64,000 bases of DNA from Escherichia phage RB16. Shown here piece by piece: positions 4,005 through 43,296 of this stretch (the stretch's first letter is position 1; the number at the start of each line of letters is the position of its first letter). The DNA lies in sequence record NC_014467.1. The stretch is one strand, 5' to 3'. The position numbers were made by a program, and so were the translations under genes. The notes under the pieces are model-generated. The model worked only from the letters and a program-made list of their open reading frames with translations. It was not told the origin of the DNA and made no database searches.

Positions 4005-5294
4005 TTATTTCAATTTCTTCGAAAGTTCTTTCAAATCATTGAGATATTCAGTTTTCGGGGTCGTTTCTTCCCAGTATTTCAGTTGCTTACGCAGTTCATT
4101 CGCTTCGTCTTCCAGCTTTTGACGTTCATCCGTGGTTAAATGGTAGATGTTCATCGCAACCAGGATTTCGGCGTGGTTCTCGCAACCCGCCCACGTAGAG
4201 ACAAGTTTAACCGCTTCGCTGCGACTAAGCCCCTTCAATGCGTCAGGCTGTGCGATCATCTGGTCGATGAAGTCAACCTTCGCCAGCGCTTTATCTAACG
4301 CTTCCTTAGTCTCCTGGATGCGTTTATCAATACGCTGTTGGTAAACACCAATACGGATATCAACGAAGTCTTTCAGCAACGTTTCAGGCCGCTCGTATGA
4401 ATGCAGTTTCCCGTTAAAGATAACGTTGATGTTCGGGTTTGAGTTCTCAATCAATCCGAAATCTTTCAGGATCTTCTCACGGGTAAGCCCGTTTGCGTAC
4501 TCACGTTTCAGGGTGATTTCGTAGCGGAAATCTTCTTTCGATAGATCCTTATAGCTTACGATATACCCTTTCTCTTCCAGCTTATCCAGAATAGAAATAT
4601 ATTTCACGCGATCATACTTGACCGGAATCTCTGTGATCACCAGTTTGGTTTTACCCTGGAGTTCGTACTTGCCGTACATCGTACCGTTTTCAATGTCACC
4701 TTTGAAATGCGGGTATTTCAGATCCAGCGTGAAATCTTTCCCGTTCAGGTAACTAACGCATCCATTCAGAACCGATACCGGATCATGTGGTGGAATGTTG
4801 GTAGCGTATGCTTTCGCGATCCCGCTGAACCCGTTAACCAATACCATCGGAATGATAGGCAGATAATAGGCAGGCGGTACGTGTTCAGGGTCTTCATGCG
4901 GAAGAGTTAAATCTTCGTCCATGTAGATAGCCTTGAACAGCGGAGACAGCTTACATTTGATGTAACGCGGTGCGCCTGGCTTCTTAACCAGACGGGAACC
5001 AAAGAACCCATCACGTTCGAAAAGCGGGATGTTGTTGCACCAGTGCGCCGCCATGAGAGACAACGCTTCTTCAACGGATGTTTCCCCGTGGTGATAACCA
5101 TACATAGCAACACCGCCAGCGATAGAGGCTACTTTCTGGAAGCCTGTACCGCCTTTTGCAGCGGAATGTATGAAGAAACGGTGAACGGGTTTGAACCCGT
5201 CTACCAGGTGCGGGATCGCACGAGAATAAATTGTGTAAAGGGCAAACGTAAGCCCTTCAACCTGCACAACGTCTTTAATACTTCGTTCCATCAA
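4005..5294 (-). CDS. 52: DNA topoisomerase II medium subunit (GyrA-like, gp52)
   Basis: 429 aa; GyrA N-terminal-like sequence; size matches T4 gp52 (442 aa); adjacent to gp39. Confidence 0.8.
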   Translation of the reverse strand: MMERSIKDVVQVEGLTFALYTIYSRAIPHLVDGFKPVHRFFIHSAAKGGTGFQKVASIAGGVAMYGYHHGETSVEEALSLMAAHWCNNIPLFERDGFFGSRLVKKPGAPRYIKCKLSPLFKAIYMDEDLTLPHEDPEHVPPAYYLPIIPMVLVNGFSGIAKAYATNIPPHDPVSVLNGCVSYLNGKDFTLDLKYPHFKGDIENGTMYGKYELQGKTKLVITEIPVKYDRVKYISILDKLEEKGYIVSYKDLSKEDFRYEITLKREYANGLTREKILKDFGLIENSNPNINVIFNGKLHSYERPETLLKDFVDIRIGVYQQRIDKRIQETKEALDKALAKVDFIDQMIAQPDALKGLSRSEAVKLVSTWAGCENHAEILVAMNIYHLTTDERQKLEDEANELRKQLKYWEETTPKTEYLNDLKELSKKLK

Positions 5295-7192
5295 TCAACC
5301 CTTGAAAATCTATGTTTTCCGTTTACCCAGTCTTTACGCGGATCGGAATCATCACCGAAACACAGTTCCAGAACGTCTTTGTATTCGTCGCCCAGTACGA
5401 TTGTATCGTATTTCAACTGGTCGCCCAACACCCGATCGTAATCTTCTTTACGCAAAGAACCCAGCCCTTTGATGTATCGTGCCTCTTTCGCTTTATCACG
5501 GAAAGGCGTGAAATCGTCCAGAGAGTAGAACCATTTTTCTTCACGTCCGACTTTCGCAATGATAATCGGTGTGCGAATATACCGGATCTTTTTCTTCGCG
5601 AACAACTCAGGCCAACGGCTAAAGAATGCAATTAACAGGGTGAGAATATCGCCCCCGTCAACGTCAGCATCCACCATGATCCCGATGTTGTCGTAAGTCA
5701 TTTCGGACGAGTCGCCTGGATGGAGATTCAGGATCGCCATTAACTCGAATAATTCTTTGTTTTTGAGAATGTCGGAATTGCTCATTCCCCAGGTGTTCAA
5801 CGGTTTGCCACGTAGCGGAAACGCGCCTTGTGTCTCTTCGTTTCTGCACTCGATAAACTGCCCCACAGCGGAATCACCTTCCGTCAGAAACAAAGTGGTT
5901 TCTACTCCATCGGTATCAATTCCTGATGCTGGAACATGTTTTGCAACCTTCGCCTTTTTCGCTTTCTTTTTCGCTTTCGTAATGGCTGCTGCTTCTGCTG
6001 CCTGTTTGCGAATCAAAGCGGACTCGATGATCGGAGTGATTATTTCAGAAGTATCCATAATCTGTTTCGCGATCTTCTTGTAGTTCAGTCCGGCGTGGTT
6101 GTTGAACTCCCCAGCAGTGTTTGTCAGTTTTTCTTTCGTCTGACTATCAAAAGCTGGTGCATTGAAGTTATGCAAAAACACGACCAAAGTCAAACATTCT
6201 TTTACACGGGCTTTCGGGATCTCGATAGCGTGTTTCTTCTTGATCATCGGTTCCAGTTCGGTATAGATACCATCGATCATGCAATCGACGTGTACACCAC
6301 CGTTTTTTGTGTCCAGACCGTTGACAAATGATTTCTGTTTGAACCCGTCTTCTGTGCTTGCCAGGATGAAACTGATTTTGTTGTTTGTCTGAACAATCGT
6401 TTTCTCTCCGTACATCGCACCATACATCGCGAATTTATTCGGGAGAACTTCATTGTTGTACGTAAATTTAACCGAAGGGAATGCCACTGCAAGCGCCATA
6501 AGGCGATCTTTGATGACTTCCTTTGTTTCTTCGTCGATACCATCCACACCGAAAATTGAGAAATCAGGGGTAAACTTAACAGTAGTTCCCTGTTCTTTCG
6601 TCGGGCTGGTTCGGTAATCCATATTCTGTGCGCCGTCAGTACAGTTGATCGTGACTTTGCGCTTACCGTTGGATGTCTCACCGATAAAGATTGAACTGTA
6701 ACAGTTAGTCAGGAAAGAACCTACACCGTTCATCCCCATTGTTACGCGGTTTTCATCATCGAAGTTTGAACCTGATTTTGCCATAGTCCAGGCTGCAACA
6801 GGTTTAGGGACAATTTTCCCTTCCGGCGTTCTCACGTCATCTTGTGGAATACCGCGCCCGTTATCTGAGATTGTCACCAAATTATGATCAATCTTCACTT
6901 CGATTTTGTTCGCGAATTTAAAATCTGTACGGATCGCTTCATCGATAGAGTTATCGAGGATTTCGTTGATGATTTTCACCAGACCTTCGACGTATTCCAC
7001 TTTGCGGAACTTACCCTGAATGAAGCGTTCGTGTGCTTCTCGGTTCACTGAACCCACATACATGTTAGGACGTTTGCGAATGTGATCGCGATCACTTAGG
7101 CAGAATGATTCATCGACTTCCACGCCTTTTGGCGTTTCCGGTACTTTCTGCGGTTCTTCTTCGTCCATTAAGAAATCTAAACTCATATTCAC
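5291..7192 (-). CDS. 39: DNA topoisomerase II large subunit (GyrB-like, gp39 with gp60 portion fused)
   Basis: 633 aa; GHKL ATPase motifs (ILDNSIDEA, DNGRGIP), TOPRIM region; length equals T4 gp39+gp60. Confidence 0.85.
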   Translation of the reverse strand: MNMSLDFLMDEEEPQKVPETPKGVEVDESFCLSDRDHIRKRPNMYVGSVNREAHERFIQGKFRKVEYVEGLVKIINEILDNSIDEAIRTDFKFANKIEVKIDHNLVTISDNGRGIPQDDVRTPEGKIVPKPVAAWTMAKSGSNFDDENRVTMGMNGVGSFLTNCYSSIFIGETSNGKRKVTINCTDGAQNMDYRTSPTKEQGTTVKFTPDFSIFGVDGIDEETKEVIKDRLMALAVAFPSVKFTYNNEVLPNKFAMYGAMYGEKTIVQTNNKISFILASTEDGFKQKSFVNGLDTKNGGVHVDCMIDGIYTELEPMIKKKHAIEIPKARVKECLTLVVFLHNFNAPAFDSQTKEKLTNTAGEFNNHAGLNYKKIAKQIMDTSEIITPIIESALIRKQAAEAAAITKAKKKAKKAKVAKHVPASGIDTDGVETTLFLTEGDSAVGQFIECRNEETQGAFPLRGKPLNTWGMSNSDILKNKELFELMAILNLHPGDSSEMTYDNIGIMVDADVDGGDILTLLIAFFSRWPELFAKKKIRYIRTPIIIAKVGREEKWFYSLDDFTPFRDKAKEARYIKGLGSLRKEDYDRVLGDQLKYDTIVLGDEYKDVLELCFGDDSDPRKDWVNGKHRFSRVD

Positions 7193-20287: not shown

Positions 20288-20296
20288 TATTACCTC

Positions 20297-20602: not shown

Positions 20603-20640
20603 GATTCACCTGTTAAGGGGGCAAAAGCCCCCAGTTATTA

Positions 20641-21786
20641 TTACTCTTCCATCAGATCTACATCATCGGGAATATCATCATCGAAATCAACTTTATTTGA
20701 TTCGACAACATCATCAGAATAAAGATCTTCGAGTGCTGCACCATCAGTGATTTCTTTATCAGGAATCCGGTATTTGTCCTGAATAGCGTCGATGAACGGC
20801 TGATGTTTAAACAGAGGTTTCCAGAACTCGATGCAGTTGGTTTCTGCTTCGCGCCATTTCTTTTCTTCCAGTTCCAGTTCACCCGTTTCCGTGTTCAGGA
20901 ACGCACGACCACGCCAGCCTTTAGTTGGAGTCTGAACGAAGTTCATTTCCATAGCCAGATCCAGAAGACCAGAGAACATACTGATACCACCCTCATACGT
21001 AACATGAAGAGGGAATTTCGATTTTTCTTTCACGAAACGAGATTTCTCAACGTTCATAATGAAGTCATAACCGACAACCTCAGTACCTTCTTTCACCTGC
21101 TGTTTGCCCAGGATAATAGCAGTATCAGCGGAGTACATCAAACCCGTACCACCTGAAATGACCTTCTTGCTGTACATTTCTTGCGTGTCGTAAGTGTGGC
21201 AGATACACACCATCGGGATATCAATGTCAGCCAGGTAAGGCGTTACCATACGGAACATACCTTTCAGGGCTTTGGCTCGCGTCATATCCTGTTTGTCGTT
21301 GTCTTCCAGAGCGTCTTTAAGCTCTTTCTTACTCGCGGTGTTGCCTACAGAGTCCACGAAAATGATCACTTTGTCGCCGCGTTCAAGCGCGTCAAGCTGG
21401 CTTACAACATCATTACGAAGTTGTTCAACTGTCGTGATACGAGTATACACAACACGATCCGGGTCAACGCCCATTGATTTCAGATAGGACTTAGTAACGC
21501 CTTTCTCTGAATCATAGAACAGACATACAGCGTCCTCATTCGCTTTGAGATACGCCGCAACTGCAACCAGTCCCAGATTCGATTTGAAGTGTTTCGACGG
21601 ACCAGCGATCAGCGTTAAGCCGGAGGTAAGGCCACCATCAAAAGCACCAGATAGAACGAGGTTCAAGATTGGTACACGGGTTCGGGTTTTGGTGATGTTA
21701 TTAAAAACATCGCTTTCAGACAGAATTGACGCAGATTGACTATTCGAATTTTTGATCAGTTTTTTCAGGAGTGCTTTATTAGACAT
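20641..21786 (-). CDS. uvsX: UvsX recombinase (RecA-like)
   Basis: 381 aa; RecA-fold Walker A GPSKHFKS; acidic C-terminus; T4 UvsX is 391 aa. Confidence 0.9.
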   Translation of the reverse strand: MSNKALLKKLIKNSNSQSASILSESDVFNNITKTRTRVPILNLVLSGAFDGGLTSGLTLIAGPSKHFKSNLGLVAVAAYLKANEDAVCLFYDSEKGVTKSYLKSMGVDPDRVVYTRITTVEQLRNDVVSQLDALERGDKVIIFVDSVGNTASKKELKDALEDNDKQDMTRAKALKGMFRMVTPYLADIDIPMVCICHTYDTQEMYSKKVISGGTGLMYSADTAIILGKQQVKEGTEVVGYDFIMNVEKSRFVKEKSKFPLHVTYEGGISMFSGLLDLAMEMNFVQTPTKGWRGRAFLNTETGELELEEKKWREAETNCIEFWKPLFKHQPFIDAIQDKYRIPDKEITDGAALEDLYSDDVVESNKVDFDDDIPDDVDLMEE

Positions 21787-21865
21787 TTATTTTTCCGGTT
21801 TATATACACGCATAATATTTTCCTCACAAGTTTATATAAAAGGGGCATTTCTGCCCCATCAGGTC

Positions 21866-24571
21866 TTACCAGTCATCACCGAACAAAGTATTCAGGGATG
21901 CGCGTTTTTCGTAATCAATTTTACATGCTTCCGTGATGTTTTGCAATGGACTGATTACATGTTTTTCAAATAATCCGTTGTAGTCAACCCATTTGAGAAT
22001 ATCACTTTCAATCTCAACAGGTAAACGGCTACCGGATTGCCATGCGATACAATCAGCTTGCCACGGGTTTTTATCACGCAACGGCAGAACCATAACCTTT
22101 TCACCTTCCATAATCTGAGTGACTCCAGGAATCCCCTTCGTATGGCGGTTAAAGAACAGTACGCCTTTAATGTGGTTTGGTGTGCCTTTAATCGGGTATC
22201 CCATACCATCATTATATTTCGTGATGTTGTTTGCCGATGATACACCAGCAATCTCGCGATAGTCAAGCGCCTTATACTCTTCCTCAAAAACTTTGAAGGA
22301 TTCGTGTAATGACTCTTCACCTTCTTGCAGGATGCGACGGATCGCCTCTTTCAAGAATTTTTTAACCGCTGTTGGTGTACTGCTTCGCTGGGTTTCCATT
22401 CCCATGATTTTTAATTTAGGCTTCTCGTAGCGGGTTCCTTCGGAGTCCCACACGTTAGCCGCATAACGTTTCTTCGCAGTCCAGAAACTACCCAACCCTT
22501 TCGAACCCAACGGAGGGCCGGAAATGATTTCACGATCCATGAACATCAAGTGTTCTACGTTGTTCATGTATTCGCACAGTTCGCGATAGCCCTTATCAAT
22601 GATAGGTTCCATGCGCTCACGACTGAATTTATCCAGGAAATCAACCCAGTGATTGTTGTCTCTGAACTTGCTTTCGCCGCCCACTTTCTCGATCACGTTA
22701 TCCATACATACATAGATTGAATCCGTGTCGCAGTAGCGAACGTAAGCGTAATCCGTGGTGTTGCACAACTGGTTCAGATATTCGTTAACCTTGCGCTCAA
22801 TCCACTGGATAGCCAATTGACCGAACATGGTGATCGCGCTGGCGTTTCGAATATCAAAGTACCGGAAGTGTTCGTTACCCAACGCACCATAAAGGGAGTT
22901 GATACTGATCTTACGGTTAAGCTGTGCGGTGTTCGCCTGTGCGATTTTCTTCTCACAAACTTTCTTCACGGCTTTAAGCATTTGCTTAGTCAGCGTTTTA
23001 AGAACCGCTTTCGATTCATCACTGAAATCAGTATAGAAATCGAAATCAGGATCAATCATCTGGTTATGCGCATCCGTCAGGTGTTCGAGTTCATGTTTGA
23101 TTAATTCAAGATTTCTCTCACCCGCCATCATTCGTTTTTTCCACATCTTACGCTGATCGAATACTTTCTTGATCTCGACTGGGATCACGCCTTTAACGTC
23201 ACGCCGGAACATCCACCCGTTAGGAGAGCAGCTAAATTCATCGCTAGGACGTGGAGCGGTCTTATTGATGTATTCGTGCATAGGACGCACCGCAAAGCTG
23301 TTAGCGATTGTCTCAGGGCTTATATTCACCTGTCTGATGATAGACGGGTACAGACTGGTTAAGTCGAACGATACAATGTATTTGTATGGAGCAACAACCG
23401 GATCTTTAACATACGCACCATCATAAGGCGTTTTAGTGTGGCGTTTGTTTTCTGGGATTACAATCTTATCTTCTCGCAAAGAGTTATATATGATTGCGTC
23501 CCACGTTTTCAACGGCGACATTACACCAGGGAAGTTGATCTTCGCATAGTACGCCACAGACAGAACCAGTTCGATGAAGTTACGCTTACCATCAATATCA
23601 AGTACGCGGATTACGTCAACGATGTTGTACGTGATGTATTTCTGGTGATCCGCTTGACGCAGTTCAGACAGAGAACCTTCGTAATCAACTTTGCTCTTAC
23701 CTGTTTCATATTCAGCGATCGCGCCCAGTCCGTAAGACGGTTGCGGGGTGAAACTGAACTTCTTATACAGATCCATGCCGTCCATCTGAGAAACGCCATA
23801 AATCTCATATCCCAGTTGTTCGTTCCCGTACTGGTCGGTCGTTGTCTTCGCTGTCACCTTACCGAACGGGCTAAAATGACGAACCACGTTTTGCCCGAAA
23901 ATATTCAGGTAACGTGTGATGATGTATGCGATATCGAATTTGTTTGAGTTCCAGCCCGTAACAATAACAGGTGTGCGCTCTTTCCAGTCTTTGATGTACG
24001 CAGACAGCAACGATTTTTCAGTTGAGAATGAACGATATACAACCTTTTTCAAATCCTCTTCACTGATTTCATTTTCAGTGTCAACCTTTGAGGCTACCCA
24101 CTCGTCTAAACCACCCTCGACCAGATCATACACAAAGAACTTATCTTCAACGCTGTCATAGTGGGTGATTGCGTCGATAGCATATTTTGCTTCGCGTGGA
24201 TCAGGGAATTCAGGCGCGGTAACTTCGATATCGAGTGAAGCGATACGGATTCTTTCGCGGTTATAGTCGATCTCAGTTCGATAGGTGTCTGAAATGTACG
24301 CAAGGCGATAGTCATCCATCCCCAGAGCTTCCATCCCTACATCCTTCATTCGCTGCATCCAGCTTTTAGCATCCTTAATGCTATCAAACTTTTTCTTAAT
24401 GCACGTCTTACCGTAGATGTCTTTGTATGGCGAGTCTACACCCGCCATAGCGTGTTGATACATCGTTGGTTCATATTTTGTTTTGCGAACTTGTTCGCGT
24501 CCCTCAGAGTCAATGAAGCGCTCATAGATATGATCGCCCATTTGCTCAACTGATAGATAAAATTCAGTCAT
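21866..24571 (-). CDS. 43: DNA polymerase (gp43, family B)
   Basis: 901 aa; N-terminus MTEFYLSVEQMGDHIYERFID parallels T4 gp43; exonuclease and polymerase motifs (YCDTDS); no intein or intron gap. Confidence 0.9.
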   Translation of the reverse strand: MTEFYLSVEQMGDHIYERFIDSEGREQVRKTKYEPTMYQHAMAGVDSPYKDIYGKTCIKKKFDSIKDAKSWMQRMKDVGMEALGMDDYRLAYISDTYRTEIDYNRERIRIASLDIEVTAPEFPDPREAKYAIDAITHYDSVEDKFFVYDLVEGGLDEWVASKVDTENEISEEDLKKVVYRSFSTEKSLLSAYIKDWKERTPVIVTGWNSNKFDIAYIITRYLNIFGQNVVRHFSPFGKVTAKTTTDQYGNEQLGYEIYGVSQMDGMDLYKKFSFTPQPSYGLGAIAEYETGKSKVDYEGSLSELRQADHQKYITYNIVDVIRVLDIDGKRNFIELVLSVAYYAKINFPGVMSPLKTWDAIIYNSLREDKIVIPENKRHTKTPYDGAYVKDPVVAPYKYIVSFDLTSLYPSIIRQVNISPETIANSFAVRPMHEYINKTAPRPSDEFSCSPNGWMFRRDVKGVIPVEIKKVFDQRKMWKKRMMAGERNLELIKHELEHLTDAHNQMIDPDFDFYTDFSDESKAVLKTLTKQMLKAVKKVCEKKIAQANTAQLNRKISINSLYGALGNEHFRYFDIRNASAITMFGQLAIQWIERKVNEYLNQLCNTTDYAYVRYCDTDSIYVCMDNVIEKVGGESKFRDNNHWVDFLDKFSRERMEPIIDKGYRELCEYMNNVEHLMFMDREIISGPPLGSKGLGSFWTAKKRYAANVWDSEGTRYEKPKLKIMGMETQRSSTPTAVKKFLKEAIRRILQEGEESLHESFKVFEEEYKALDYREIAGVSSANNITKYNDGMGYPIKGTPNHIKGVLFFNRHTKGIPGVTQIMEGEKVMVLPLRDKNPWQADCIAWQSGSRLPVEIESDILKWVDYNGLFEKHVISPLQNITEACKIDYEKRASLNTLFGDDW

Positions 24572-25322: not shown

Positions 25323-25325
25323 ATA

Positions 25326-26958: not shown

Positions 26959-27630
26959 TTACTTGAACTGGCTGGTTGCTTCAAGTACAACCACGTAAGC
27001 CACGCCGTTTTCGGAAGAGAATTTAGCCGCGCCTTGTGCAGAGATTTCAACTTTGTAATCGCTGTTGATGAACTGCATGTTATCAATCTTCATATCGAAG
27101 TTGAACACGTTATCACCTTCGTAATCGCCAACTTCTACAGAGAAGGTTGACTGGCTTTCTTTGCTTTTCGCAGTGATTACCAGTTTGCCGTTGATTGGTT
27201 CGACGGACAGGTCGGTCAGTTTCATCATGCGTGATGCTTTGATCAGTTTTTCAAAGTCGCTTGCGCTAATCTGGAACACCAGATCCGCAACTGGCATCTG
27301 CAAGCGTTTTTTCGGCTTGACGATTGTTGTTGGGTCGCATGAACGGTCAACGATCTTCATTTTGTCGCCGCGAATGATGATTTCGCCAGTAGACAGATCG
27401 TGAGTTACTTCGGCATCAGCGCCGACGATGTTCAGCATACTAAGGAATGAGTTCAGATCATAGATACCGACATCTTCATCAATCACATCAGGAATTTCAG
27501 CTTCCGCGTAAACTACGCTGTTGATGGTTTTCGTCATGATGAACGAACCTTTGGTCAACATGATTGATGGGTTGATCTGAGAGAAGTTTTTCAGGATATC
27601 GATAGTTTGTTTTGAGAATTTCATATTCAA
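26959..27630 (-). CDS. 45: sliding clamp (gp45)
   Basis: 223 aa; resembles T4 gp45 along its length. Confidence 0.85.
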   Translation of the reverse strand: MNMKFSKQTIDILKNFSQINPSIMLTKGSFIMTKTINSVVYAEAEIPDVIDEDVGIYDLNSFLSMLNIVGADAEVTHDLSTGEIIIRGDKMKIVDRSCDPTTIVKPKKRLQMPVADLVFQISASDFEKLIKASRMMKLTDLSVEPINGKLVITAKSKESQSTFSVEVGDYEGDNVFNFDMKIDNMQFINSDYKVEISAQGAAKFSSENGVAYVVVLEATSQFK

Positions 27631-27644: not shown

Positions 27645-27929
27645 TTAGGCAAAAGTGCCGTTAATCAGGGAGTTTACAACGATTTGCGCCGCAGTGTCAA
27701 AAATCTTTTTGTGTTCTGCGTCGTTCAGTTTTTTGCCGGAGTTGTGTGCGTCTGCAACCACTTTTTCGCGTACTTCGATCACAGCTTCATCAATTCGTTT
27801 ATAATGCTCGAAGCGTTCAGCTTGAGGCATTGCACGAAACATTTCTTTGATGTTATCTGGGGTTTTGCTTACCCATGATTTGCGAACGTTGTTCAGGTGC
27901 GCAACGTATACATTTTGTTCTAAATTCAT
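27645..27929 (-). CDS. hypothetical protein
   Basis: 94 aa ORF between gp32 and gp45. Confidence 0.4.
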   Translation of the reverse strand: MNLEQNVYVAHLNNVRKSWVSKTPDNIKEMFRAMPQAERFEHYKRIDEAVIEVREKVVADAHNSGKKLNDAEHKKIFDTAAQIVVNSLINGTFA

Positions 27930-27974: not shown

Positions 27975-28958
27975 TTACAGATCCAGCAGTTTATCCAGGT
28001 CGTCATCACCTGAACCTTCGTTCAGATCAAACGGCGGGGTATCATCTTCCGGTACGCTTCCGCCTACGTTCAGTTGACTTACGCCACCAGATTCTTTAGC
28101 ACCTTTGGACTGGTTGCTATTATCGAAGTTTTTCAGATCGTTGTCAAATGAATTCAGTTCAGAATCCAGATCAGCACCAGCGCTTGCGCCAGCACCCAGA
28201 GCAGCACCGCCACCGAATACTTTAGTGAAACGTGCGGTCAGTTCAGCAGCAGGTTTAAACTGGTCTGGTGCAGTAATCGGACGGAGATCACTCATACCTT
28301 CGAAAATCGCTTTCTGAACGGCTTCTTCGTCGATACCTTTAATCGGGCCAGGTACGCCGAATGTGCTGTCGTCATAGTTAGGCCATTCGCCTACTTTCTT
28401 CGCTTTCAGAGTGAAGTTAGCACCACCGAACGGACACGTTACAGCAATACCAGGTTCATCCAGATCAGGGTTGCCAGCGATGGTTGCGGTGATTTTGTCC
28501 ATGATCTTCTTACCGAAGCGGAACTTAAACACTTTACCTTCATTTTCCGGTGCGCCAGGATCTTTGATTACCAGGATGTTAGCCCAGAACGATTGTTTAC
28601 GTCCGATTTGTCCCAGCAGTTTATCGGCTTCACCGCCTTTATTTGCTTTCGCTTTTTCGAACAGGTCGTTGTCAGAAATATACTGACATACCGGACAACC
28701 ATCGTAATCGCCGTGAGTAGACGGGCAGTTTTCGATATACCACTGATTTTGTTTTTTGAATGAATGGCTAACGATACGCACGAACGCCAGTTCATCATCG
28801 GAGCGGTTAGGCAGGAAACGAATCACAGCGGAACCGTTTTTCTGTGCATCCAGAGTGAGTTTCCACTCTTTTTCATCTTTCTGGAAGCCGGAAGAACCTT
28901 TCAGGGCTGCAACTTGTTCTTGTAATTTGGTCGGGTCTTGACGTTTAAAAAATGACAT
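27975..28958 (-). CDS. 32: single-stranded DNA-binding protein (gp32)
   Basis: 327 aa; zinc-site region STHGDYDGCPVCQY and KVFKFRFGKKI match T4 gp32; acidic C-terminal tail. Confidence 0.85.
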   Translation of the reverse strand: MSFFKRQDPTKLQEQVAALKGSSGFQKDEKEWKLTLDAQKNGSAVIRFLPNRSDDELAFVRIVSHSFKKQNQWYIENCPSTHGDYDGCPVCQYISDNDLFEKAKANKGGEADKLLGQIGRKQSFWANILVIKDPGAPENEGKVFKFRFGKKIMDKITATIAGNPDLDEPGIAVTCPFGGANFTLKAKKVGEWPNYDDSTFGVPGPIKGIDEEAVQKAIFEGMSDLRPITAPDQFKPAAELTARFTKVFGGGAALGAGASAGADLDSELNSFDNDLKNFDNSNQSKGAKESGGVSQLNVGGSVPEDDTPPFDLNEGSGDDDLDKLLDL

Positions 28959-28961
28959 GGA

Positions 28962-29627
28962 TTATTTCTCGTTTAGTTTAGTTAAGGTTTGTTTCATTAA
29001 ATTTCGGTATTTTACGATTTCTTCGTCACTGATTTCTACTAATTTTCTGTATGCGTTTAGTTTTTTGCTAAATTCATTCCAGACGAAATCCGTTGCGATT
29101 TCATCGTGTTTATTTATGATGTCTAAAAATGAGTCGAGAATCAAGAATGATTCGTAAGAAATCACTCCAGACTGAACGAGTTTACTGATATAAGAAGTGG
29201 ATGATTTTACGCTATACTGAAACACCGTTGAGAGGGGAATACCTTTCATGCGGGAAAATTCATACAGGTTTTTTACATCGTCCACGAAAATATTATCAAT
29301 TCGTCGCAACTTACCAATGTATTGACGATAAAACACGATCGTATCTTCGTCTATATCCCCAACCCAAAAGTCGGGGTTAGCCACCATGTTGCAGAGTAGT
29401 ATAAGGTAAATTTCCTTGAAAGTAAACCTTTCGGCTAACTTTGTGAAAAAATACCTATCTTTTCTCTTTTGGAACGCTTGTTCAGTGATCTTTATTTCCC
29501 ATTTGTACTTGATCGCGTCATACCTTCCCGCAAAGTGATTTTTCATCACCAGATACAGTTTGTATACCGCAATCGGTTTCAAACGGGAATTAGCGTCTGA
29601 ACTTCCAAACGGGGTTTTAAATTTCAC
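28962..29627 (-). CDS. 59: helicase loader (gp59)
   Basis: 221 aa; resembles T4 gp59 (VYKLYLVMKNH, YFFTKL, LDSFLDIINKHDE). Confidence 0.8.
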   Translation of the reverse strand: MKFKTPFGSSDANSRLKPIAVYKLYLVMKNHFAGRYDAIKYKWEIKITEQAFQKRKDRYFFTKLAERFTFKEIYLILLCNMVANPDFWVGDIDEDTIVFYRQYIGKLRRIDNIFVDDVKNLYEFSRMKGIPLSTVFQYSVKSSTSYISKLVQSGVISYESFLILDSFLDIINKHDEIATDFVWNEFSKKLNAYRKLVEISDEEIVKYRNLMKQTLTKLNEK

Positions 29628-29875
29628 ATGAAATCATCCAGAGTTTGCGTTGTTGTGTGGTCTTTAGCCACAGAAGGACGCAACAAATTATTTTTGATTG
29701 CTTCATCGCTAATCTTGTCAATGATAGCTTTCGGAACAGTTTTATTCAACATGGAATAGTCGATACTATTTTCATCCATCCACTGTAACGTTGCTTCCAT
29801 GTAGGTTGCCCCTTCTGAGGCAACCAGATTTTCGATGTACAAGCCTACTTCGGTTTTATTTCCGATTTCGCTCAT
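29624..29875 (-). CDS. 33: late transcription co-activator (gp33)
   Basis: 83 aa; motifs YMEAT..W..EN and LLRPSV shared with T4 gp33. Confidence 0.65.
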   Translation of the reverse strand: MSEIGNKTEVGLYIENLVASEGATYMEATLQWMDENSIDYSMLNKTVPKAIIDKISDEAIKNNLLRPSVAKDHTTTQTLDDFM

Positions 29876-29876
29876 T

Positions 29877-30140
29877 TTACGCCTTATCGATCACATCGTA
29901 AAGTTCGATCAGTTCGTTGTTTTGTTCTTCGAACTCGGTACGCGCCTGGTTGTGATACAGGTTGAACAGCTTGCTAAACGTTTTACCGTCGATGCCGTAG
30001 TCAGTTTTCGCTTTGGATTTGATATCTTTCAACGTACCCTGATGGATCTCGATCTGGGTTTTCACGTTGGACGCTTCTTTGATCATGTCTTTGATTGCTT
30101 TTGCAATTTCAGGGTTTTCTTGCAGTAATTCAATGCTCAT
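29877..30140 (-). CDS. dsbA: double-stranded DNA-binding protein DsbA
   Basis: 87 aa; resembles T4 DsbA (IKEA.NV..QI..H..TLKDIK..AKT..G.DGK.F.KL). Confidence 0.65.
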   Translation of the reverse strand: MSIELLQENPEIAKAIKDMIKEASNVKTQIEIHQGTLKDIKSKAKTDYGIDGKTFSKLFNLYHNQARTEFEEQNNELIELYDVIDKA

Positions 30141-30148
30141 TTGTTACC

Positions 30149-31084
30149 TCAAAAGTCACTTAATTTTTCAAACATACGGACAAGTTTGTTTTCCATGAAG
30201 TATTTCTCCATTTTAGCCTTGTTGCCCGATTTCGGATTATTGTACGCCTTTTCGATTTCATCTGCAACATCTTTTGGAATAAAATCGAAATCACGTAGTT
30301 CTTCGTTTTCCCTGTACCTTGCGGCCCACTCAGGGGTCATATGGACAGTAGGGTCGTCCGCATCCAGCCACAATTCCAGTTCATTAGCGCGGATTTGCGG
30401 GGCGCGTTCACCTTCAACTTTCGTAACAATATAGTCGTTTCTCATTTTAATACAAGCGATACTATCTTTTTTATCGCCCTTAATGATCTTCATACGTAAA
30501 TCATTACGAGGTGTACCGTATTTCGGCGTAACCCATTTCTTTTGGGTAGGCGACCATTGTCGAACACCCTGATATTTTTGCAGCGCGGTAAAGTCACTAT
30601 CCGCTGATACAATCAGGACTCGCTTACCTTGCGCTACTGCGTTTTTCGTAACGACACCGATAATATCATCGGCTTCTGCGAAGTCAACCCTCAAACCTTT
30701 GTACGGAAGATTCTCGCGGATCTCGTCGTAGGTCGGATGAAGGAAACCGTTCAAAAAATCCCAGTCCCATTCGGATTCCGCGTGTTCCATTTGTCGTTTC
30801 TTTTTGTAGTACCAGGCTTTACTTCTTCGCCAATACTTGTTATCATCAAAGGCCAAGACAATTTCTGGGTACTCACCTTTGAATTTAACCACGTTGTACC
30901 TGATTGTGTCAAGAACAATGTGACGAATAATTTGTTGATTGATGTCTTTCTGGTCTTTCGGCTTGAAGTTGTTCATCAACGTTGCTACCGAAAGGTTTGA
31001 AATATCTATACACATCACATCAACAGGATCATCTTCATTGCTCATTAAACTGTTCAGATTGAACATTGAAGCAAATGAACTCAT
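30149..31084 (-). CDS. rnh: RNase H (FEN-1-like 5'-3' exonuclease)
   Basis: Start placed at MSSFASMF (RBS GAGG); motifs YWRR, EADD, SSDGDF-like, KGDKKD match T4 RNase H. Confidence 0.8.
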   Translation of the reverse strand: MSSFASMFNLNSLMSNEDDPVDVMCIDISNLSVATLMNNFKPKDQKDINQQIIRHIVLDTIRYNVVKFKGEYPEIVLAFDDNKYWRRSKAWYYKKKRQMEHAESEWDWDFLNGFLHPTYDEIRENLPYKGLRVDFAEADDIIGVVTKNAVAQGKRVLIVSADSDFTALQKYQGVRQWSPTQKKWVTPKYGTPRNDLRMKIIKGDKKDSIACIKMRNDYIVTKVEGERAPQIRANELELWLDADDPTVHMTPEWAARYRENEELRDFDFIPKDVADEIEKAYNNPKSGNKAKMEKYFMENKLVRMFEKLSDF

Positions 31085-31406
31085 TTCAATACCTCGTTGT
31101 TGTTGAATGAAGCTGATTATAGTGATCACTTTTTCAAAGTCAATAGATCATTTCAAGATTCTGAGCGAAGCGAAGGACACGAACGAAGTGAGTGTCTAAC
31201 TACATAACTACACTTTTAAATTTTTATATTTTATATATAGAGAAAAATGTAGTTTTTGGTATGTTTTTTAACCAATCTTACCTATCCGTTTCGCTTCGCT
31301 CACGGAAACGCTTCGCGTTGATTTTATTAAATAATATAGATTGGAAGTAGGTTTGAAACCTGTAATTCCATCAGCTATAATGAATGTATTCAATTTGGAG
31401 AATATA

Positions 31407-31922: not shown

Positions 31923-32146
31923 AAATTAAAATTGACCTGAACAAAATTTTAGCAGACGCTGAAAACGAAATTGATCTGCTTCCGTACCTCGTGAAATTAG
32001 AGTTGCAGAACGTAGGGGTTCCGGTTATTATCGACCCTACTGATGTACGAGATCCAGACTTTGCTATAGAAAGCGGACGACTGGACTATGTAATAAATGC
32101 CGAAACAATGATCATGGAGATCACTTACTATGACCGAGCAGCATGA
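31919..32146 (+). CDS. hypothetical protein
   Basis: 75 aa; 4-nt overlap coupling with gp55. Confidence 0.4.
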   Translation: MKIKIDLNKILADAENEIDLLPYLVKLELQNVGVPVIIDPTDVRDPDFAIESGRLDYVINAETMIMEITYYDRAA

Positions 32147-32477
32147 AGTATTAGACGAAGTGGCGCACGAGAAAACAGCAACAGAACTTCGTGAAGAAGA
32201 ACTGGAATCCCTGAAAGGTACGCGTGTTGAACAGGAAGCGCTAAGCAAAGCACAGAAGTATATGCGAAAGAACCGCGCTGAATGGAAACGACTTCACAAA
32301 CACGCAGAAAATGCCCTGTTTGATGGTAACAAAGCACAGTATGTGTACGCTATCAAAAAGATGCGTGATATGCTTAAACAGCCATACAACGATGAACTGA
32401 TTGAAACGATGTGGATCACTTCAAATCAACAGCTTAAAGATCTATTCGTAATGGCTTCCGAAAAATACGGCAAATAA
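32130..32477 (+). CDS. hypothetical protein
   Basis: 115 aa; followed by terminator hairpin AACCCCTTCGGGGGTT. Confidence 0.45.
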   Translation: MTEQHEVLDEVAHEKTATELREEELESLKGTRVEQEALSKAQKYMRKNRAEWKRLHKHAENALFDGNKAQYVYAIKKMRDMLKQPYNDELIETMWITSNQQLKDLFVMASEKYGK

Positions 32478-32503
32478 ACCCCTTCGGGGGTTTTGAGGTA
32501 TAT

Positions 32504-33523
32504 ATGAATTATGTGTTAATTGGCGATACACATGCAGGTCTTCGCCAGGATAACCCCTGGAACGAAGATAACCTGTATGAAGTATTCAAACAGATAGTAG
32601 CGTATTGCAAAGAACATGGGATCACTCGCGGTTTCCATGCGGGTGATTTCTTTGATGTTCGAAAAGCAACCACGCAGACAACGATGAATTTCGTTCGTGA
32701 AAAGCTGGTTCCTCTTCTGACTGAGGCTGGGATCGTTATCGATACTTTGGTTGGCAACCACGATTGCCAATTTAAAGACAAAATCCGGCCCAACGCGCCG
32801 CGCGAGATACTCAGTCAGTATGAATGCTTTAATGTCATCGACGAACCGACCACAGTCGATTTAGGCGGTGGAAAATCGATTGACCTGATCCCGTGGATTT
32901 GTCAGGAAAACAGTCATAGGATTTTCGAGTTTATCAAACAGTCAAAATCAAATTTCTGTCTGGGACACTTCGAACTTTCTGGTTACTATTTCTACAAAAA
33001 CAGTAAAGCGGATCACGGGCTTGAACCGGACTTCTTGAAAAAGTATGAACGCGTTTACTCTGGACACTATCACCATGCAAACGAAGGTGATAACGTGTTT
33101 TACATCGGTACACCGCTTACTATGAGCGCCAACGATGAAGACGAAACACGCGGGTTTTATGTGTTCACTGGTACGCCTGAATTAACGTTCATCGCTAACC
33201 CTGTCTGTCATCATCGCCGGATTTCATACCCAGCGCAGAAAGATGTTGATCTTGAACAATTCCGTAACTGTGCGGTACGTCTGATCGTCAGTGAGGTTGA
33301 TTCAAACCTTGCCAAGTTCCAAACCAAAATTGAAGAAATCGCCTACGAAATCAGTATCATTGACAACGTGAAAACTGATTCTGATGTGGATACCGATTTC
33401 GAAATTAAAACGGTTCGTGGGCTTATGGGTGAGTATGTCGCAAACATGCAGATCACCGATGACGAAAAAGAAGACGTTAATCGTATGATTAGCGAACTTT
33501 ACGCCGAGGTGTCTGGTGCATAG
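32504..33523 (+). CDS. 47: recombination endonuclease subunit (gp47, Mre11/SbcD-like)
   Basis: 339 aa; phosphoesterase motifs GDTHAG, GNHD, GHYHH. Confidence 0.85.
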   Translation: MNYVLIGDTHAGLRQDNPWNEDNLYEVFKQIVAYCKEHGITRGFHAGDFFDVRKATTQTTMNFVREKLVPLLTEAGIVIDTLVGNHDCQFKDKIRPNAPREILSQYECFNVIDEPTTVDLGGGKSIDLIPWICQENSHRIFEFIKQSKSNFCLGHFELSGYYFYKNSKADHGLEPDFLKKYERVYSGHYHHANEGDNVFYIGTPLTMSANDEDETRGFYVFTGTPELTFIANPVCHHRRISYPAQKDVDLEQFRNCAVRLIVSEVDSNLAKFQTKIEEIAYEISIIDNVKTDSDVDTDFEIKTVRGLMGEYVANMQITDDEKEDVNRMISELYAEVSGA

Positions 33524-33797
33524 CAGATATGAAAAATATTTCGGTGAGAACCCCCGATATTCTCACCTGTTGCGTATGCTGGGAATGAAACATATCATTG
33601 CCACTTCTGACGAAGCAGGGGAAACCAGCGCAGTTTGTTTGACCATCATGAAGGGTGCATGGCATTCATCACGAACATGGTCAATCTTCATGCTTGATAC
33701 ACTGGACGACGATACGCTATCATATACTATTGATTCATCGGTTGTTCAATTGATCACTGAATTATGTGAACGGATTTTAAATGAAACTAAAAACTAA
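33516..33797 (+). CDS. hypothetical protein (GTG start)
   Basis: 93 aa track ORF beginning on GTG; may be a remnant next to the homing endonuclease insertion. Confidence 0.25.
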   Translation: MHSRYEKYFGENPRYSHLLRMLGMKHIIATSDEAGETSAVCLTIMKGAWHSSRTWSIFMLDTLDDDTLSYTIDSSVVQLITELCERILNETKN

Positions 33798-34311
33798 ATC
33801 ACATGGAGGTGGAAACCGAACAATTGATGATGAAATTTCTTCAATAAATGAACTACTTCCTATGTTGGATGTTGATGTTGTATTAGGAAAGATATACTGG
33901 AAAAACTCACCTCGTAAGAGCGTCCCTGCTGGAACTGAAGCAGGGAGTAAGACAAAACATGGTTACGTTGCTATCGGGTATAAAAAGACGTATTATAGAC
34001 GACATCGAATAATATTTTACGTCGCTAATGGTTATCTTCCTCTCGTAGTAGATCACAAACACGGTGTTGAATCTGGTGATGGAATAGATAACCTGCAAGA
34101 CATCACGCAACAACAAAACTCCGTTAAAATGAGAATGAGTAGAAGGAATTCTTCTGGGTTTAGAGGGGTTTCCTTTCACCAAAAATCAGGAAAATGGCAA
34201 TCATGTATTGTGTATAATAGAAAAACAATATATCTTGGTTTGTATGAAACACCAGAACTTGCACATAGTGCATATACAGACAAGCGAAAAGAATTATTTG
34301 GTGAAATATGA
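33781..34311 (+). CDS. HNH-AP2 homing endonuclease (Mob-like)
   Basis: 176 aa; HNH_3-type core YLPLVVDHKHGVESGDGIDNL and AP2-type DNA-binding region GVSFHQKSGKWQSCI...YLGLYETPELAHSAY; inserted between gp47 and gp46. Confidence 0.7.
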   Translation: MKLKTKSHGGGNRTIDDEISSINELLPMLDVDVVLGKIYWKNSPRKSVPAGTEAGSKTKHGYVAIGYKKTYYRRHRIIFYVANGYLPLVVDHKHGVESGDGIDNLQDITQQQNSVKMRMSRRNSSGFRGVSFHQKSGKWQSCIVYNRKTIYLGLYETPELAHSAYTDKRKELFGEI

Positions 34312-36005
34312 AATTAAATTTCCGTAAAATTAAGTATCAAAACATCTTATCAGTGGGTAATACCCCGATCGAACTTGAATTCGATACTGCAAAGAAAACC
34401 CTGATCACGGGTAAAAATGGTGGTGGTAAATCCACACTGATCGAAGCGTTGACGTATGCTCTTTTTGGTAAATCATTTCGTGATTTAAAAGTCGGGCAAC
34501 TGGTAAACAGTGTCAACAAAAAGAAATGTCTGGTTGAACTGGATATTGAATACGGGAAAGATTCGTACAAAGTCGTTCGCGGACAAAAGCCGAAAGTATT
34601 CGAGATCTGGAAAAACGGTGATAAGTTAGCAGAAGATTCAGCAGCGGGTGATTATCAATCTCAGCTTGAATCCATGCTCAATATTAACCTGGTTGGATTC
34701 AAACAGGTAATCGTGTTGGGTACTGCTGGCTATACTCCATTCATGGAACTGAAAACACCGGATCGCCGTAAACTGGTTGAAGACCTGTTGTCGCTATCGG
34801 TTATCAGTGAAATGGATAAGCTGAACAAATCATATGTCCGTGGTGTTAATCAGCAGTTGGATACCCTGTCAATGCAGGTTAACCACATCCAGCAGCAGAT
34901 CGCTACACACCAGCGCTTCATTGATGAACAGCGAGCTAAAGCGAACCAGAACAACGCACGATACAAAGAGATCTACGATAGCCACGTTGAAACCGCTAAG
35001 AACATCAAAGCACAGCTTATGCAGTTGCAAGCGGAGATCGCAGAAACGGTGATCACTGGTGCAGACCGAACGGAAGATATAAACAAACTCCGTGATGGCT
35101 ATACGCGCCTCTCTATGACTGTAGAACAGTTTAAAAAGCTGGAAGTGATGTATCAGAAAGGTGGTGAGTGTCCGGCCTGTAAACAGGCGATTAAGCCCAC
35201 TCCTGAACGCATGGAAGAGATCGCAAACAACATCAAAGCGGGTACGCAACGATTAACGCTGATCAAAACCAAACAGGACGAGTTGCAAGGCATTATGAAC
35301 GAGTTGCTTCAACAGCAACGCGCACTGAATGCTATGAAAACGAAATACGAAGCCCTGAAAGGTACGCTGCAAAATGAAGTTGCCAACGCTAAACGCGCAC
35401 AAGCGATCATGGAACAGGCAAGCGCGGAAGTTGTTATTGATGAAGAACCTGTTAAGCAGTTACAACAACAGGAAGCAGATCTGAACGATAAACGTCAAGG
35501 ATATGTGAAAGAAAAATATATCCGTGGTATCGTTACAGATATGTTAAAAGATTCTGGTGTAAAAGCCAGCATCGTAAAACGTTATATCCCGTACTTCAAC
35601 AAGCAGATCGCATACTATCTGGATCTGTTGGGCGCTGACTACCAGTTCACTTTAGATGATGAATTCAACGAATCAATCAAATCACTGGGGCGCGATGATT
35701 TTAGTTACGCATCATTTAGCCAGGGTGAACGCGCACGAATCAACCTTGCGTTGCTTATGACCTGGCGTGATGTAACAAGTAAAGTTTCTGGTGTTGATTT
35801 ATCGCTTCTGGTACTAGATGAAATCTTTGATGGTGCAATGGATAAAGAAGGTGGATTTGCAGTCAGAGCATTACTGGATGATATTGAAGGTAATGTTATT
35901 GTAATCAGTCATCAGGATTTAGATCCACAAGAATTTCATCGACATATTGTTATGTCTAAAGTAGGGAGATTCACCAAATGCAAGATAGTAAACAATGATT
36001 ACTAA
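34308..36005 (+). CDS. 46: recombination endonuclease subunit (gp46, Rad50/SbcC-like ATPase)
   Basis: 565 aa; Walker A GKNGGGKST; coiled coil with zinc hook CPACK; Walker B/D-loop LLVLDE. Confidence 0.85.
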   Translation: MKLNFRKIKYQNILSVGNTPIELEFDTAKKTLITGKNGGGKSTLIEALTYALFGKSFRDLKVGQLVNSVNKKKCLVELDIEYGKDSYKVVRGQKPKVFEIWKNGDKLAEDSAAGDYQSQLESMLNINLVGFKQVIVLGTAGYTPFMELKTPDRRKLVEDLLSLSVISEMDKLNKSYVRGVNQQLDTLSMQVNHIQQQIATHQRFIDEQRAKANQNNARYKEIYDSHVETAKNIKAQLMQLQAEIAETVITGADRTEDINKLRDGYTRLSMTVEQFKKLEVMYQKGGECPACKQAIKPTPERMEEIANNIKAGTQRLTLIKTKQDELQGIMNELLQQQRALNAMKTKYEALKGTLQNEVANAKRAQAIMEQASAEVVIDEEPVKQLQQQEADLNDKRQGYVKEKYIRGIVTDMLKDSGVKASIVKRYIPYFNKQIAYYLDLLGADYQFTLDDEFNESIKSLGRDDFSYASFSQGERARINLALLMTWRDVTSKVSGVDLSLLVLDEIFDGAMDKEGGFAVRALLDDIEGNVIVISHQDLDPQEFHRHIVMSKVGRFTKCKIVNNDY

Positions 36006-36570
36006 AAACTGGGACGACGAATTTCAAGCCGAGATTCGTCGTCGGTTTTACCATGTAAACGGGGTTTTGTATCACAAGACGGAGAGTAAACAAACTGCTT
36101 TTTCTCCGGCGGGATACTATTTCAAACCTGGTGATATGGTGAAATGTCACAAAACTAGGAAAAAGACTCCATATTTACAGATTTGTATGCGATATGAAGG
36201 GAAGTCTAACTATCTATACGTACATAGGGTTGTGTGGTTTCTTGAATATGGGTATCAGGTTGATACGATCGACCATATCGATCTAAATCCTTTAAATAAT
36301 GATCCATCGAATCTTAGAGAAGCAAGCACACAGCAGAACCATTACAACAAAAATGGAAAACCTAACACTTCCTCCACTTACAAGGGTGTATCATGGGATA
36401 AATCAACTTGCAAATGGAAAGTGGGTATTCAGCATAATAAGAAAAAGATTCATTTAGGATATTTTGATGATGAAGTCGAAGCGGCTAAGGCATACGATGC
36501 AAAGGCAATTGAAATTGGTGGACAATATGCGAGGTTAAACTTCCATGATTATGTTAGAACGAGAATTTGA
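35995..36570 (+). CDS. HNH-AP2 homing endonuclease (Mob-like)
   Basis: 191 aa; HRVVW...IDHIDLNPLNNDPSNLR HNH_3 motif and AP2-like KGVSWDKSTCKWKVGI...LGYFDDEVEAAKAY. Confidence 0.7.
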   Translation: MITKNWDDEFQAEIRRRFYHVNGVLYHKTESKQTAFSPAGYYFKPGDMVKCHKTRKKTPYLQICMRYEGKSNYLYVHRVVWFLEYGYQVDTIDHIDLNPLNNDPSNLREASTQQNHYNKNGKPNTSSTYKGVSWDKSTCKWKVGIQHNKKKIHLGYFDDEVEAAKAYDAKAIEIGGQYARLNFHDYVRTRI

Positions 36571-38796: not shown

Positions 38797-39050
38797 AACT
38801 ACCAAAACACACAACCCTGTTAACCCGCGAAAAACTTCATTCTGTTGAATGGAGTCCGTTAGATGTGATGGTGTTCGATCTGGAATCCAAAATCATTAAC
38901 GCTCATGTTAACGGATTGAGTATCTTTTCTGTTGAATTTGAAAAGATTCGCGGGTACAATGAAGCCTGTAAAGACAAATTGCGCGTCATGGTTGAAGCTA
39001 TGGGCTACATCGTGACTATTGAAGACAACAAAATGTGGATCGCGCTATGA
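38793..39050 (+). CDS. hypothetical protein
   Basis: Start placed at MKLPKHTT; ATGA coupling on both sides. Confidence 0.4.
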   Translation: MKLPKHTTLLTREKLHSVEWSPLDVMVFDLESKIINAHVNGLSIFSVEFEKIRGYNEACKDKLRVMVEAMGYIVTIEDNKMWIAL

Positions 39051-39628
39051 GCAAAGTAAAAGCAGTTTTCGCCGTTGGTCATGATATGTACGAAGTGGAC
39101 TATGCTTTCGGTTATGAACAGGGTTTGCCGTGGGGCCACTGCAAAGAGGATTTGCAGAACTTCAAAGCAGAAACCGCAAATAGCGTCCTGATCATGGGTG
39201 CGAACACTTTTACTTCTCTGCCTGGTAAATTGCCAGGGCGAGTGCATTGCGTTCTGTCTGCGTCCGGTCAACGTCTGGTAACGAAGAACGGGAATACCGC
39301 TGATTACATCATCCACGGCGGCGGGTTGTCTGCTGCAATCGACGTGATGAAAGCAACGCATCCAGATAGTGATGTGTGTATCATTGGCGGTAAGGGGTTG
39401 CTTCTGGAAGCAATCAATAATAAACTGGTTGATGAAGTGGTTGTGACCCACATTTACGGACATCATGCATATAATGCACCCGCGTTTAAACGTGATGTTT
39501 CGTTCACTGTTCCTGAATTCTGCGAAGCGGTTCTGAAATATGAACTGACCGATTTCAAAATTCAACAGATCGAATCAAACGAACGCGTCAGAAAAATTAT
39601 CGTCGATCGACATACGAAAAAGGCATAA
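39047..39628 (+). CDS. frd: dihydrofolate reductase
   Basis: DHFR motifs (LPW, GxxTF); sits before td as in T4. Confidence 0.8.
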   Translation: MSKVKAVFAVGHDMYEVDYAFGYEQGLPWGHCKEDLQNFKAETANSVLIMGANTFTSLPGKLPGRVHCVLSASGQRLVTKNGNTADYIIHGGGLSAAIDVMKATHPDSDVCIIGGKGLLLEAINNKLVDEVVVTHIYGHHAYNAPAFKRDVSFTVPEFCEAVLKYELTDFKIQQIESNERVRKIIVDRHTKKA

Positions 39629-42777: not shown

Positions 42778-42806
42778 CGGAGAAGCCCCGAAAGGGGCTT
42801 TTTGAT

Positions 42807-43295: not shown

Positions 43296-43296
43296 T

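Follow-up and report, generated by a model that had tools for sequence, protein, structure and literature searches.

The uvsX–gene 43 junction

The stretch of DNA analysed here, referred to as the window, comprises 64,000 nucleotides (nt) of Escherichia phage RB16 (NC_014467.1) and forms the left-hand 64 kb of a myovirus genome of the RB43 type (genus Pseudotevenvirus); it runs from rIIB to gene 26. The element under study is the short interval separating the recombinase gene uvsX from the DNA polymerase gene 43, both on the minus strand. The uvsX gene (20641..21786) encodes a RecA-like recombinase of 381 amino acids (aa) with the Pfam domains RecA and T4_UVSX_C, and T4 UvsX aligns to positions 21771..20764 with 56% identity (tblastn, E 9e-129). 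Gene 43 (21866..24571) encodes a polymerase of 901 aa with the Pfam domains DNA_pol_B and DNA_pol_B_exo1, and residues 1-898 of T4 gp43 align to 24571..21878 with 54% identity (tblastn). Read on the minus strand, the interval runs from the gene 43 stop codon (21866-21868) to the uvsX ATG at 21786; the list of open reading frames (ORFs) and the sequence place it at 21787..21865, exactly the spacing of 79 base pairs (bp) reported in the initial annotation. It contains no gene, and the accompanying claim that neither a hydroxymethylase nor a glucosyltransferase is encoded between uvsX and gene 43 was therefore accurate. In T4, the same two genes (uvsX, 22386-23561; gene 43, 27197-29893) are separated by 3,635 bp containing segA, beta-gt, gene 42, imm and imm.1; the annotation had named beta-gt, gene 42 and imm, all three of which are there, and had omitted segA and imm.1.

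The compact junction is widely shared. A gap of identical length and nearly the same sequence occurs in Lw1, RB43, phi5 and KPN-11i, the Lw1 junction being 99.8% identical to that of the window, and a search with a 901-bp query across the junction (coverage of 80% or more) returned a contiguous match in 174 phage records. The KP15-like Klebsiella phages PTP25 and Earwig_ER32, which probably belong to Slopekvirus, although their records give no genus, likewise have nothing but a short gap between uvsX and gene 43, in which a GC-rich tetraloop hairpin with a T-run and a conserved uvsX leader are found; they differ in a gap length of 74 bp, in the hairpin sequence and in a junction only about 77% identical. 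A recent deletion in this isolate, or an artefact of its assembly, has practically no chance of explaining the compact form and is already refuted by this conservation: the gap recurs at the same length and with nearly the same sequence in four named relatives and in a 74-bp form in the sister group, the 174 records are independent, and the gap itself carries organised signals (the hairpin, promoter-like site and ribosome-binding region described below). Nothing was found in favour of a deletion or artefact.

More distant relatives fill the interval to different degrees. The Krischvirus GEC-3S has a single ORF of 62 aa there, leaving the two genes nearly adjacent, whereas the interval of Acinetobacter phage 133 accommodates thirteen ORFs in about 4.6 kb, among them imm, arn.3 and a homing endonuclease gene. 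The uvsX–gene 43 interval is thus a variable insertion spot among T4 relatives, of which Pseudotevenvirus has the minimal form.

On the minus strand, the gap and its bordering codons read TAA GACCTGAT GGGGCA-GAAA-TGCCCC TTTTATATAAACTTGTGAGGAAAATATTATGCGTGTATATAAACCGGAAAAATAA ATG. A terminator scan and RNA folding identified a terminator-like hairpin at 21838..21857 (minus strand), GGGGCA-GAAA-TGCCCC followed by TTTT, which begins 8 nt past the gene 43 stop codon, has a 6-bp stem with five GC pairs and a GAAA loop of the GNRA tetraloop class, and belongs to the minimum-free-energy structure. The sequence attributes of an intrinsic terminator are all present, that is, a GC-rich stem, a short loop, a 3' U-run and a gene just upstream. 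At the same position, the KP15-like phages carry GGGGC-TTCG-GCCCC followed by TTT, so that the structure is conserved while the sequence is different. The hairpin is one of about 14 similar elements in the window, all of them GC-rich tetraloop hairpins followed by a T-run, and most of these are intergenic. A consensus scan also returned a sigma-70-like candidate for a uvsX promoter at 21812..21840 (minus strand; 9/12 matches), composed of a -35 element TTTATA (21840-21835), a 17-nt spacer and a -10 element TATTAT (21817-21812). The KP15-like phages have TAGAAT at the -10 position, and the uvsX leader CGGAAAAAT(T)AAATG is invariant. The hairpin with its U-run may act as a partial terminator or as a 3' stabiliser of the gene 43 transcript, and a weak early-type sigma-70-like promoter downstream of it would then lead into the ribosome-binding region of uvsX. 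From these elements we infer that the 79-bp gap marks an ordinary boundary between transcription units.

Two further candidate signals were discarded. Two TATATAAAC motifs in the gap were considered as late promoters, but TATAAATA occurs nowhere in the window and neither motif is kept in the KP15-like phages. A second hairpin, formed by two TATATA segments, gave a fold z-score of -3.0, but it is not conserved in the KP15-like phages and is not claimed. As regards late transcription in general, the T4 late-promoter octamer TATAAATA has 0 occurrences in the 64 kb against 2.4 expected by chance, and nTAAATA is found upstream of baseplate (late) genes, for example at 58420 (-), 58429 (+), 60717 (+), 61778 (+) and 63415 (+); the late-promoter consensus of this phage thus appears relaxed at its first positions.

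Relatives of the window and gene order

At the nucleotide level, the closest record around the junction is Lw1 (Pseudotevenvirus lw1; KC801932.2 / NC_021344.2), with 98.8% identity over positions 18000-26000, followed at 88-89% by RB43, CfP1, Miller, IME-CF2 and members of the genus from Cronobacter, Enterobacter and Klebsiella (megablast). Lw1 is collinear with the whole window, from rIIB at position 1 to gene 26, with a mosaic identity of 75-98.6% and several insertions or replacements; beyond about 38 kb the identity lies between 75 and 91%. From 33 to 46 kb, the best records (GAP161 and others) reach only ~90-91%, and in the right half of the window, where a relative closer than Lw1 was sought, no record exceeded about 91%. 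Nucleotide similarity to Pseudotevenvirus nevertheless extends along the entire 64 kb, and the nearest records (Lw1, RB43, CfP1, Miller, GAP161 and others) all belong to this genus where a taxonomy line is given. RB43 has the same 79-bp gap; at about 89% nucleotide identity, it is a different species. The guanine-cytosine (GC) content of the window is 43.46%, as in Lw1 (43.5%), compared with 34-36% in two T4 stretches that were fetched. The initial annotation had judged the GC content by eye to be above that of T4 and had placed the DNA in a non-T4 genus of T4-like phages, both of which proved correct.

Gene identities were assigned by tblastn with T4 proteins, complemented by Pfam. They resolve a leftward replication cluster, in the order 52, 39+60 ... 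56, 61 ... 41, 40, uvsX, 43, regA, 62, 44, 45, rpbA, 32, 59, 33, dsbA, rnh, and an inverted block on the other strand with 55, 47, 46, 45.2, frd, td, nrdA, nrdB, denA, rnlA, pseT, cd and 31. Order and strands agree with the Lw1 and RB43 annotations and thus with the RB43-type topology, and the departure from the T4 gene order that had been noticed is real. The homologous core proteins share 38-61% identity with those of T4, and the local order 41-40-uvsX ... 43-regA-62-44-45-rpbA is common to both. RB43 was the sole genome among five T4-like phages to show a significant break in synteny, and neither motA nor middle promoters were found in it (Nolan et al., PMC1524935); in RB16 and RB43, most replication genes are clustered in one sector (Petrov et al. 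2010, PMC2993671). The window shares with the RB43/RB16 type the clustered replication genes, the break in T4 synteny, the lack of gene 42, glucosyltransferases and motA, the presence of gene 56 and the AP2-HNH genes.

Most of the individual rearrangements listed in the initial annotation could be traced, a few of them with small corrections. The topoisomerase II subunit gp52 (4005..5294, minus strand; 43% identity to T4 gp52, E 3e-107; Pfam DNA_topoisoIV) overlaps by 4 bp the ORF of the large subunit (5291..7192, minus strand), in which gp39 and gp60 are fused. Both T4 proteins map consecutively and in the same frame into this single ORF, as had been claimed, with gp39 residues 9-473 at 7099..5705 and gp60 residues 28-159 at 5710..5321, and it carries the Pfam domains HATPase_c, DNA_gyraseB, Toprim and TOPRIM_C. 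T4 encodes gp39 and gp60 separately, on either side of mobA, and its linear record places gene 52 about 165 kb away from 39. The statement that gp52 directly adjoins both gp39 and rIIA holds for gp39, but two small ORFs separate it from rIIA (900..3149): one at 3160..3393 and a SprT-like one at 3390..3932. The latter, a putative metallopeptidase on the minus strand, is intact and 180 aa long in the window; Lw1 annotates two ORFs there (gp003 and gp004).

The module 32, 59, 33, dsbA, rnh (27975..31129, minus strand; T4 protein tblastn) has the same order in the Lw1 annotation and is found at 147-151 kb in T4; with gene 45 and rpbA it makes up a module for replication and late transcription. It does follow the clamp gene 45 (26959..27630, minus strand; T4 protein tblastn), although not in direct contact, as rpbA (27645..27929, minus strand; Pfam Phage_RpbA) lies in between. 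On the plus strand, frd (39035..39628; Pfam DHFR_1) is followed by td (39630..40484), and nrdB is located at 43246..44472. In both td and nrdB, a single ORF spans the Pfam model (Thymidylat_synt, 1-266/266; Ribonuc_red_sm, 7-281/281), and Rfam at gathering thresholds detected no group I intron in the window, two tRNAs being the sole matches; the two genes are thus intron-free as stated, whereas their T4 counterparts carry introns. The dCMP deaminase gene cd is located at 48646..49170 (plus strand; Pfam dCMP_cyt_deam_1), and its Lw1 equivalent is annotated as Cd. Lw1 shares the gp52/gp39+60 arrangement, gp56, the methyltransferase and the intron-less td and nrdB; mobE at the gene 46/45.2 site and Lw1_gp027, both present in Lw1, are missing from the window.

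Upstream of gene 43, an ORF of 106 aa (24564-24884, minus strand; phrog_7277) lies between regA and 43 and overlaps the start of gene 43 by 8 nt, at a place where T4 has a non-coding regA-43 spacer of 79 bp. The T4 spacer carries the translational operator of gp43. Because the ORF overlaps the gene 43 start where T4 has this spacer, gene 43 in the window may be translationally coupled rather than controlled by an operator. The cumulative GC skew reaches its minimum at the boundary between the leftward and rightward gene blocks, in an AT-rich divergent region (about 31130-31340, about 39% GC) flanked by rnh (-) and gene 55 (+).

Cytosine-modification genes and DNA chemistry

The window and the complete Lw1 genome (176,227 bp) were searched by tblastn with T4 proteins. 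T4 gp42 matched only td, at 23% identity (E 1e-5 in the window, 3e-6 in complete Lw1); beta-gt, alpha-gt, imm and imm.1 gave nothing better than E 0.4 in either sequence, the beta-alpha-gt of T2/T6 not being among the queries; and alc, denB, arn, motA and asiA had no match at E <= 0.01 in either. Of the genes expected for glucosylated hydroxymethylcytosine (HmC) of the T-even kind, gene 42, the glucosyltransferase genes and alc, denB and arn are thus absent, and the one present, gene 56, is not diagnostic since it occurs in nearly all T4 relatives. The joint lack of gene 42, alpha-gt, beta-gt, alc, denB, motA and asiA that is expected of Pseudotevenvirus is found in both the window and Lw1.

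Three sites occupied in T4 by the genes in question are empty in the window, their flanking genes directly abutting: the uvsX–gene 43 junction, the alpha-gt site and the alc site. At the second (32478..32503, plus strand), only 26 bp separate the a-gt.4 homologue (32130..32477) from gp47 (32504..33523), both located by tblastn; in T4, where alpha-gt lies between 47 and 55, a-gt.3, a-gt.2, mobB, a-gt and 47.1 stand between a-gt.4 and 47. At the third (46542..46545, plus strand), rnlA (45388..46545) overlaps pseT.3 (46542..46868) by 4 bp (tblastn), whereas T4 has alc between the two. In published surveys, gene 42 alleles occur in T-even phages, JS98, RB69, CC31, Acinetobacter phages and some Aeromonas phages, but not in RB43 or RB16 (PMC2993671, Table 4), and alc is distributed in the same way (PMC2993671). 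A 2025 analysis likewise described Pseudotevenvirus as being without an HmC transferase and endonuclease IV (PMC12115623).

Gene 42 and the glucosyltransferase genes might, in principle, have been relocated or re-acquired outside the 64 kb, as the window is a mosaic relative to Lw1, with insertions that Lw1 lacks, and gene content differs between close relatives. This is highly improbable: none of these genes is present in complete Lw1 and no report places one in RB43, in RB16 or elsewhere in the genus (PMC2993671, PMC12115623), while alc, which is co-distributed with gene 42 (PMC2993671), is also missing from its syntenic site. A genus-wide check with T4 gp42 against all phage records (tblastn) matched 977 of them and could not show absence from the genus. 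The initial annotation had allowed for gene 42 and gt homologues turning up elsewhere, with the order of a well-described genus, in which case the arrangement would simply be ordinary; the order is indeed that of such a genus, but the Lw1 genome contains no such homologues.

The dCTPase resembling gp56 that had been recognised is present at 14550..15083 (minus strand; phrog_173) as a homologue of the dCTPase/dUTPase-type nucleoside triphosphate pyrophosphohydrolases. It is 46% identical to T4 gp56 over the full length (BLASTP E 2e-53, residues 8-177 versus 4-171), and the acidic motifs align (IEDETREL/IDDEFREL and FELIDQWHF/FELVDIFHF); no match was returned by Pfam, NCBIfam or PDB sequences. 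Gene 56 has been found in all phages of the T4 group but the giant ones (PMC2993671, Table 4). In the window, gp56 comes directly after the primase gene 61 (junction at 15083-15146), whereas in Lw1 the hypothetical 105-aa gene Lw1_gp027 lies in between (Lw1 15274-15591).

Methylation is the other component of cytosine chemistry to be considered. A DNA methyltransferase with an NPPF motif (ISNPPFG) is encoded at 16840..17625 (minus strand; phrog_3820, E 7e-131; Pfam MTS) and is probably of the N6-adenine type. Outside the region equivalent to the window, Lw1 additionally encodes a C-5 cytosine methylase (gp123; PF00145, E 9e-93) and a Dam-class methylase (gp245). Lw1 was grown on BL21(DE3), a dcm strain, and the methylation of its Dcm sites is therefore probably made by the phage, through its own C5 methylase. 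The DNA of Lw1, of 43.5% GC, was reported to be methylated, fully or in part, at its Dam and Dcm sites (PMC3861415).

Taken together, these data point to an RB43-type genome that lacks the T-even HmC apparatus, is most likely made with ordinary deoxycytidine triphosphate (dCTP) and then acquires methyl groups at particular sites from phage methyltransferases, which would include the NPPF-type enzyme of the window and the Dam-type and C5-cytosine enzymes of the closest relative. Ordinary cytosine is most likely because gene 42, alc and denB are missing and the closest relative has a C5-cytosine methylase. The gp56 homologue would remove deoxyuridine triphosphate (dUTP) and turn part of the pool of dCTP and dCDP into the monophosphate dCMP, which Cd and Td, together with Frd, would convert into thymidine monophosphate (dTMP) for a genome more AT-rich than its host; such a supply of dTMP would suit a genome of 43.5% GC in a host of roughly 50-57% GC. 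A role of gene 56 in leading dCTP and dUTP to dTMP has been proposed more generally by Petrov et al. (PMC2993671). With the 79-bp gap as a transcription-unit boundary, this account as a whole is held with high confidence.

Some observations weigh against it. The absence of gene 42 and the glucosyltransferases from a whole genome is shown in Lw1, while the data on the phage itself cover 64 kb that are mosaic relative to Lw1. The dCTP/dUTP activity of the gp56 homologue is a prediction, and this protein matches nothing in Pfam, NCBIfam or PDB sequences. The promoter candidate in the gap is a weak consensus match, with three such sites in 600 bp against 1.4 expected from shuffles. Lastly, the absence of T4 genes is strong evidence, not proof, of unmodified cytosine, because a 2026 study detected glucosylated cytosine derivatives in the Krischvirus SAP, from a genus without gene 42 or gt homologues and through a pathway that is unknown (PMC13390438). 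Krischvirus (RB49 group; GEC-3S, SAP/TB34) is pseudo-T-even and, like the window, devoid of gene 42 and glucosyltransferases (PMC12115623, PMC13390438), but the rest of its genome is largely syntenic with T4 (PMC1524935).

The SAP precedent lends some substance to a different reading, in which a pathway with no relation to gp42 or to the glucosyltransferases of T4 hypermodifies the cytosine of this phage and gp56 takes part in excluding dCTP. It is also consistent with the retention of a full-length gp56 with conserved motifs and with the fact that about half of the ORFs of the genus have no known function (PMC3861415). The weight of the evidence is nevertheless on the other side. For Lw1 DNA, methylation at Dam and Dcm sites is the only modification described (PMC3861415), and the C5-cytosine methylase of Lw1 requires ordinary cytosine as its substrate; alc, denB and arn are absent from the window and Lw1; plasmid DNA is packaged and transduced by RB43 (PMC12115623); nearly every T4 relative has gene 56, with or without gene 42 (PMC2993671); and TB34, 99.96% identical to SAP, has canonical cytosine (PMC13390438). 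Hypermodification is accordingly rated as very unlikely, and the same low standing is given to its extension to the whole genus, whereby Pseudotevenvirus cytosine would be replaced or decorated by a non-homologous pathway with the gp56 homologue as first step. If that were true, nothing about DNA chemistry could be read from the vacant sites of gene 42 and gt. The preferred interpretation remains that of ordinary dCTP followed by site-specific methylation. The initial annotation had considered cytosine modification undecidable from the window, which is fair for the window alone; the evidence from the genus, namely Lw1, now narrows the question.

A DenA homologue (45036-45446, plus strand), an endonuclease II with GIY-YIG/UvrC-like features, is retained despite the probably cytosine-containing DNA, and how the phage's own DNA escapes it is not obvious.

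Mobile elements, repeats and significance

Four ORFs on the plus strand combine the domains HNH_3 and AP2: 33781..34311, between gp47 and gp46; 35995..36570, between gp46 and gp45.2; 42765..43295, between nrdA and nrdB; and 53790..54341, upstream of the ligase gene. The AP2 score is under the Pfam gathering cut-off in all four, which are paralogous at the DNA level and, from their domain content, look like free-standing homing endonucleases. AP2-HNH genes of this kind are typical of RB43 and RB16 and absent from Lw1, which has none of them at the four sites and was published as being without AP2 endonucleases; in T4, the nrdA-nrdB gap holds the unrelated mobE. A further ORF of 185 aa after nrdB (44482-45039, plus strand; phrog_16747), with weak matches to LAGLIDADG_3 and HTH_38, is a candidate for a further mobile endonuclease and has no counterpart at the equivalent position in Lw1.

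An inverted repeat of 115 nt has its two copies at 10605-10719 and 55858-55972, with arms 76% complementary and a nearly identical core of about 90 nt. Both copies have the same orientation relative to local transcription, and each comprises an AAGCCCCTTGCA-loop-AGGGGCTTTT hairpin, the loop differing between the copies, an AT-rich promoter-like stretch and a shared Shine-Dalgarno leader before a small ORF (ATG at 10643, minus strand, and 55934, plus strand). We take this repeat to resemble the mobile promoter/stem-loop cassettes of RB49-type phages. Two tRNA genes, Met(CAT) and Gly(TCC), are located on the plus strand at 49781-49857 and 49863-49938; the tRNA-Gly is extra with respect to Lw1, and the reported counts are one tRNA for Lw1 and RB43 and two for RB16.

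The gene order unlike that of T4 and the missing T4 cytosine-modification genes are already known and ordinary for Pseudotevenvirus, since both traits have long been published for the RB43 group. The initial finding thus correctly rediscovers a genome type already in the literature, one with a rearranged map and no hydroxymethylcytosine genes, which was described between 2006 and 2010 and is now represented by well over 100 genomes. Within this frame, a narrow question concerns the role of a dCTPase-type enzyme in a phage that uses deoxycytidine, and the 2026 Krischvirus report raises another, namely whether the absence of gene 42 really equals unmodified cytosine. In practical terms, ordinary restriction enzymes and CRISPR nucleases can probably cut this DNA. 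RB43 is moreover able to transduce plasmids, and plasmid transduction by RB43-type phages is relevant to the safety of phage therapy (PMC12115623).

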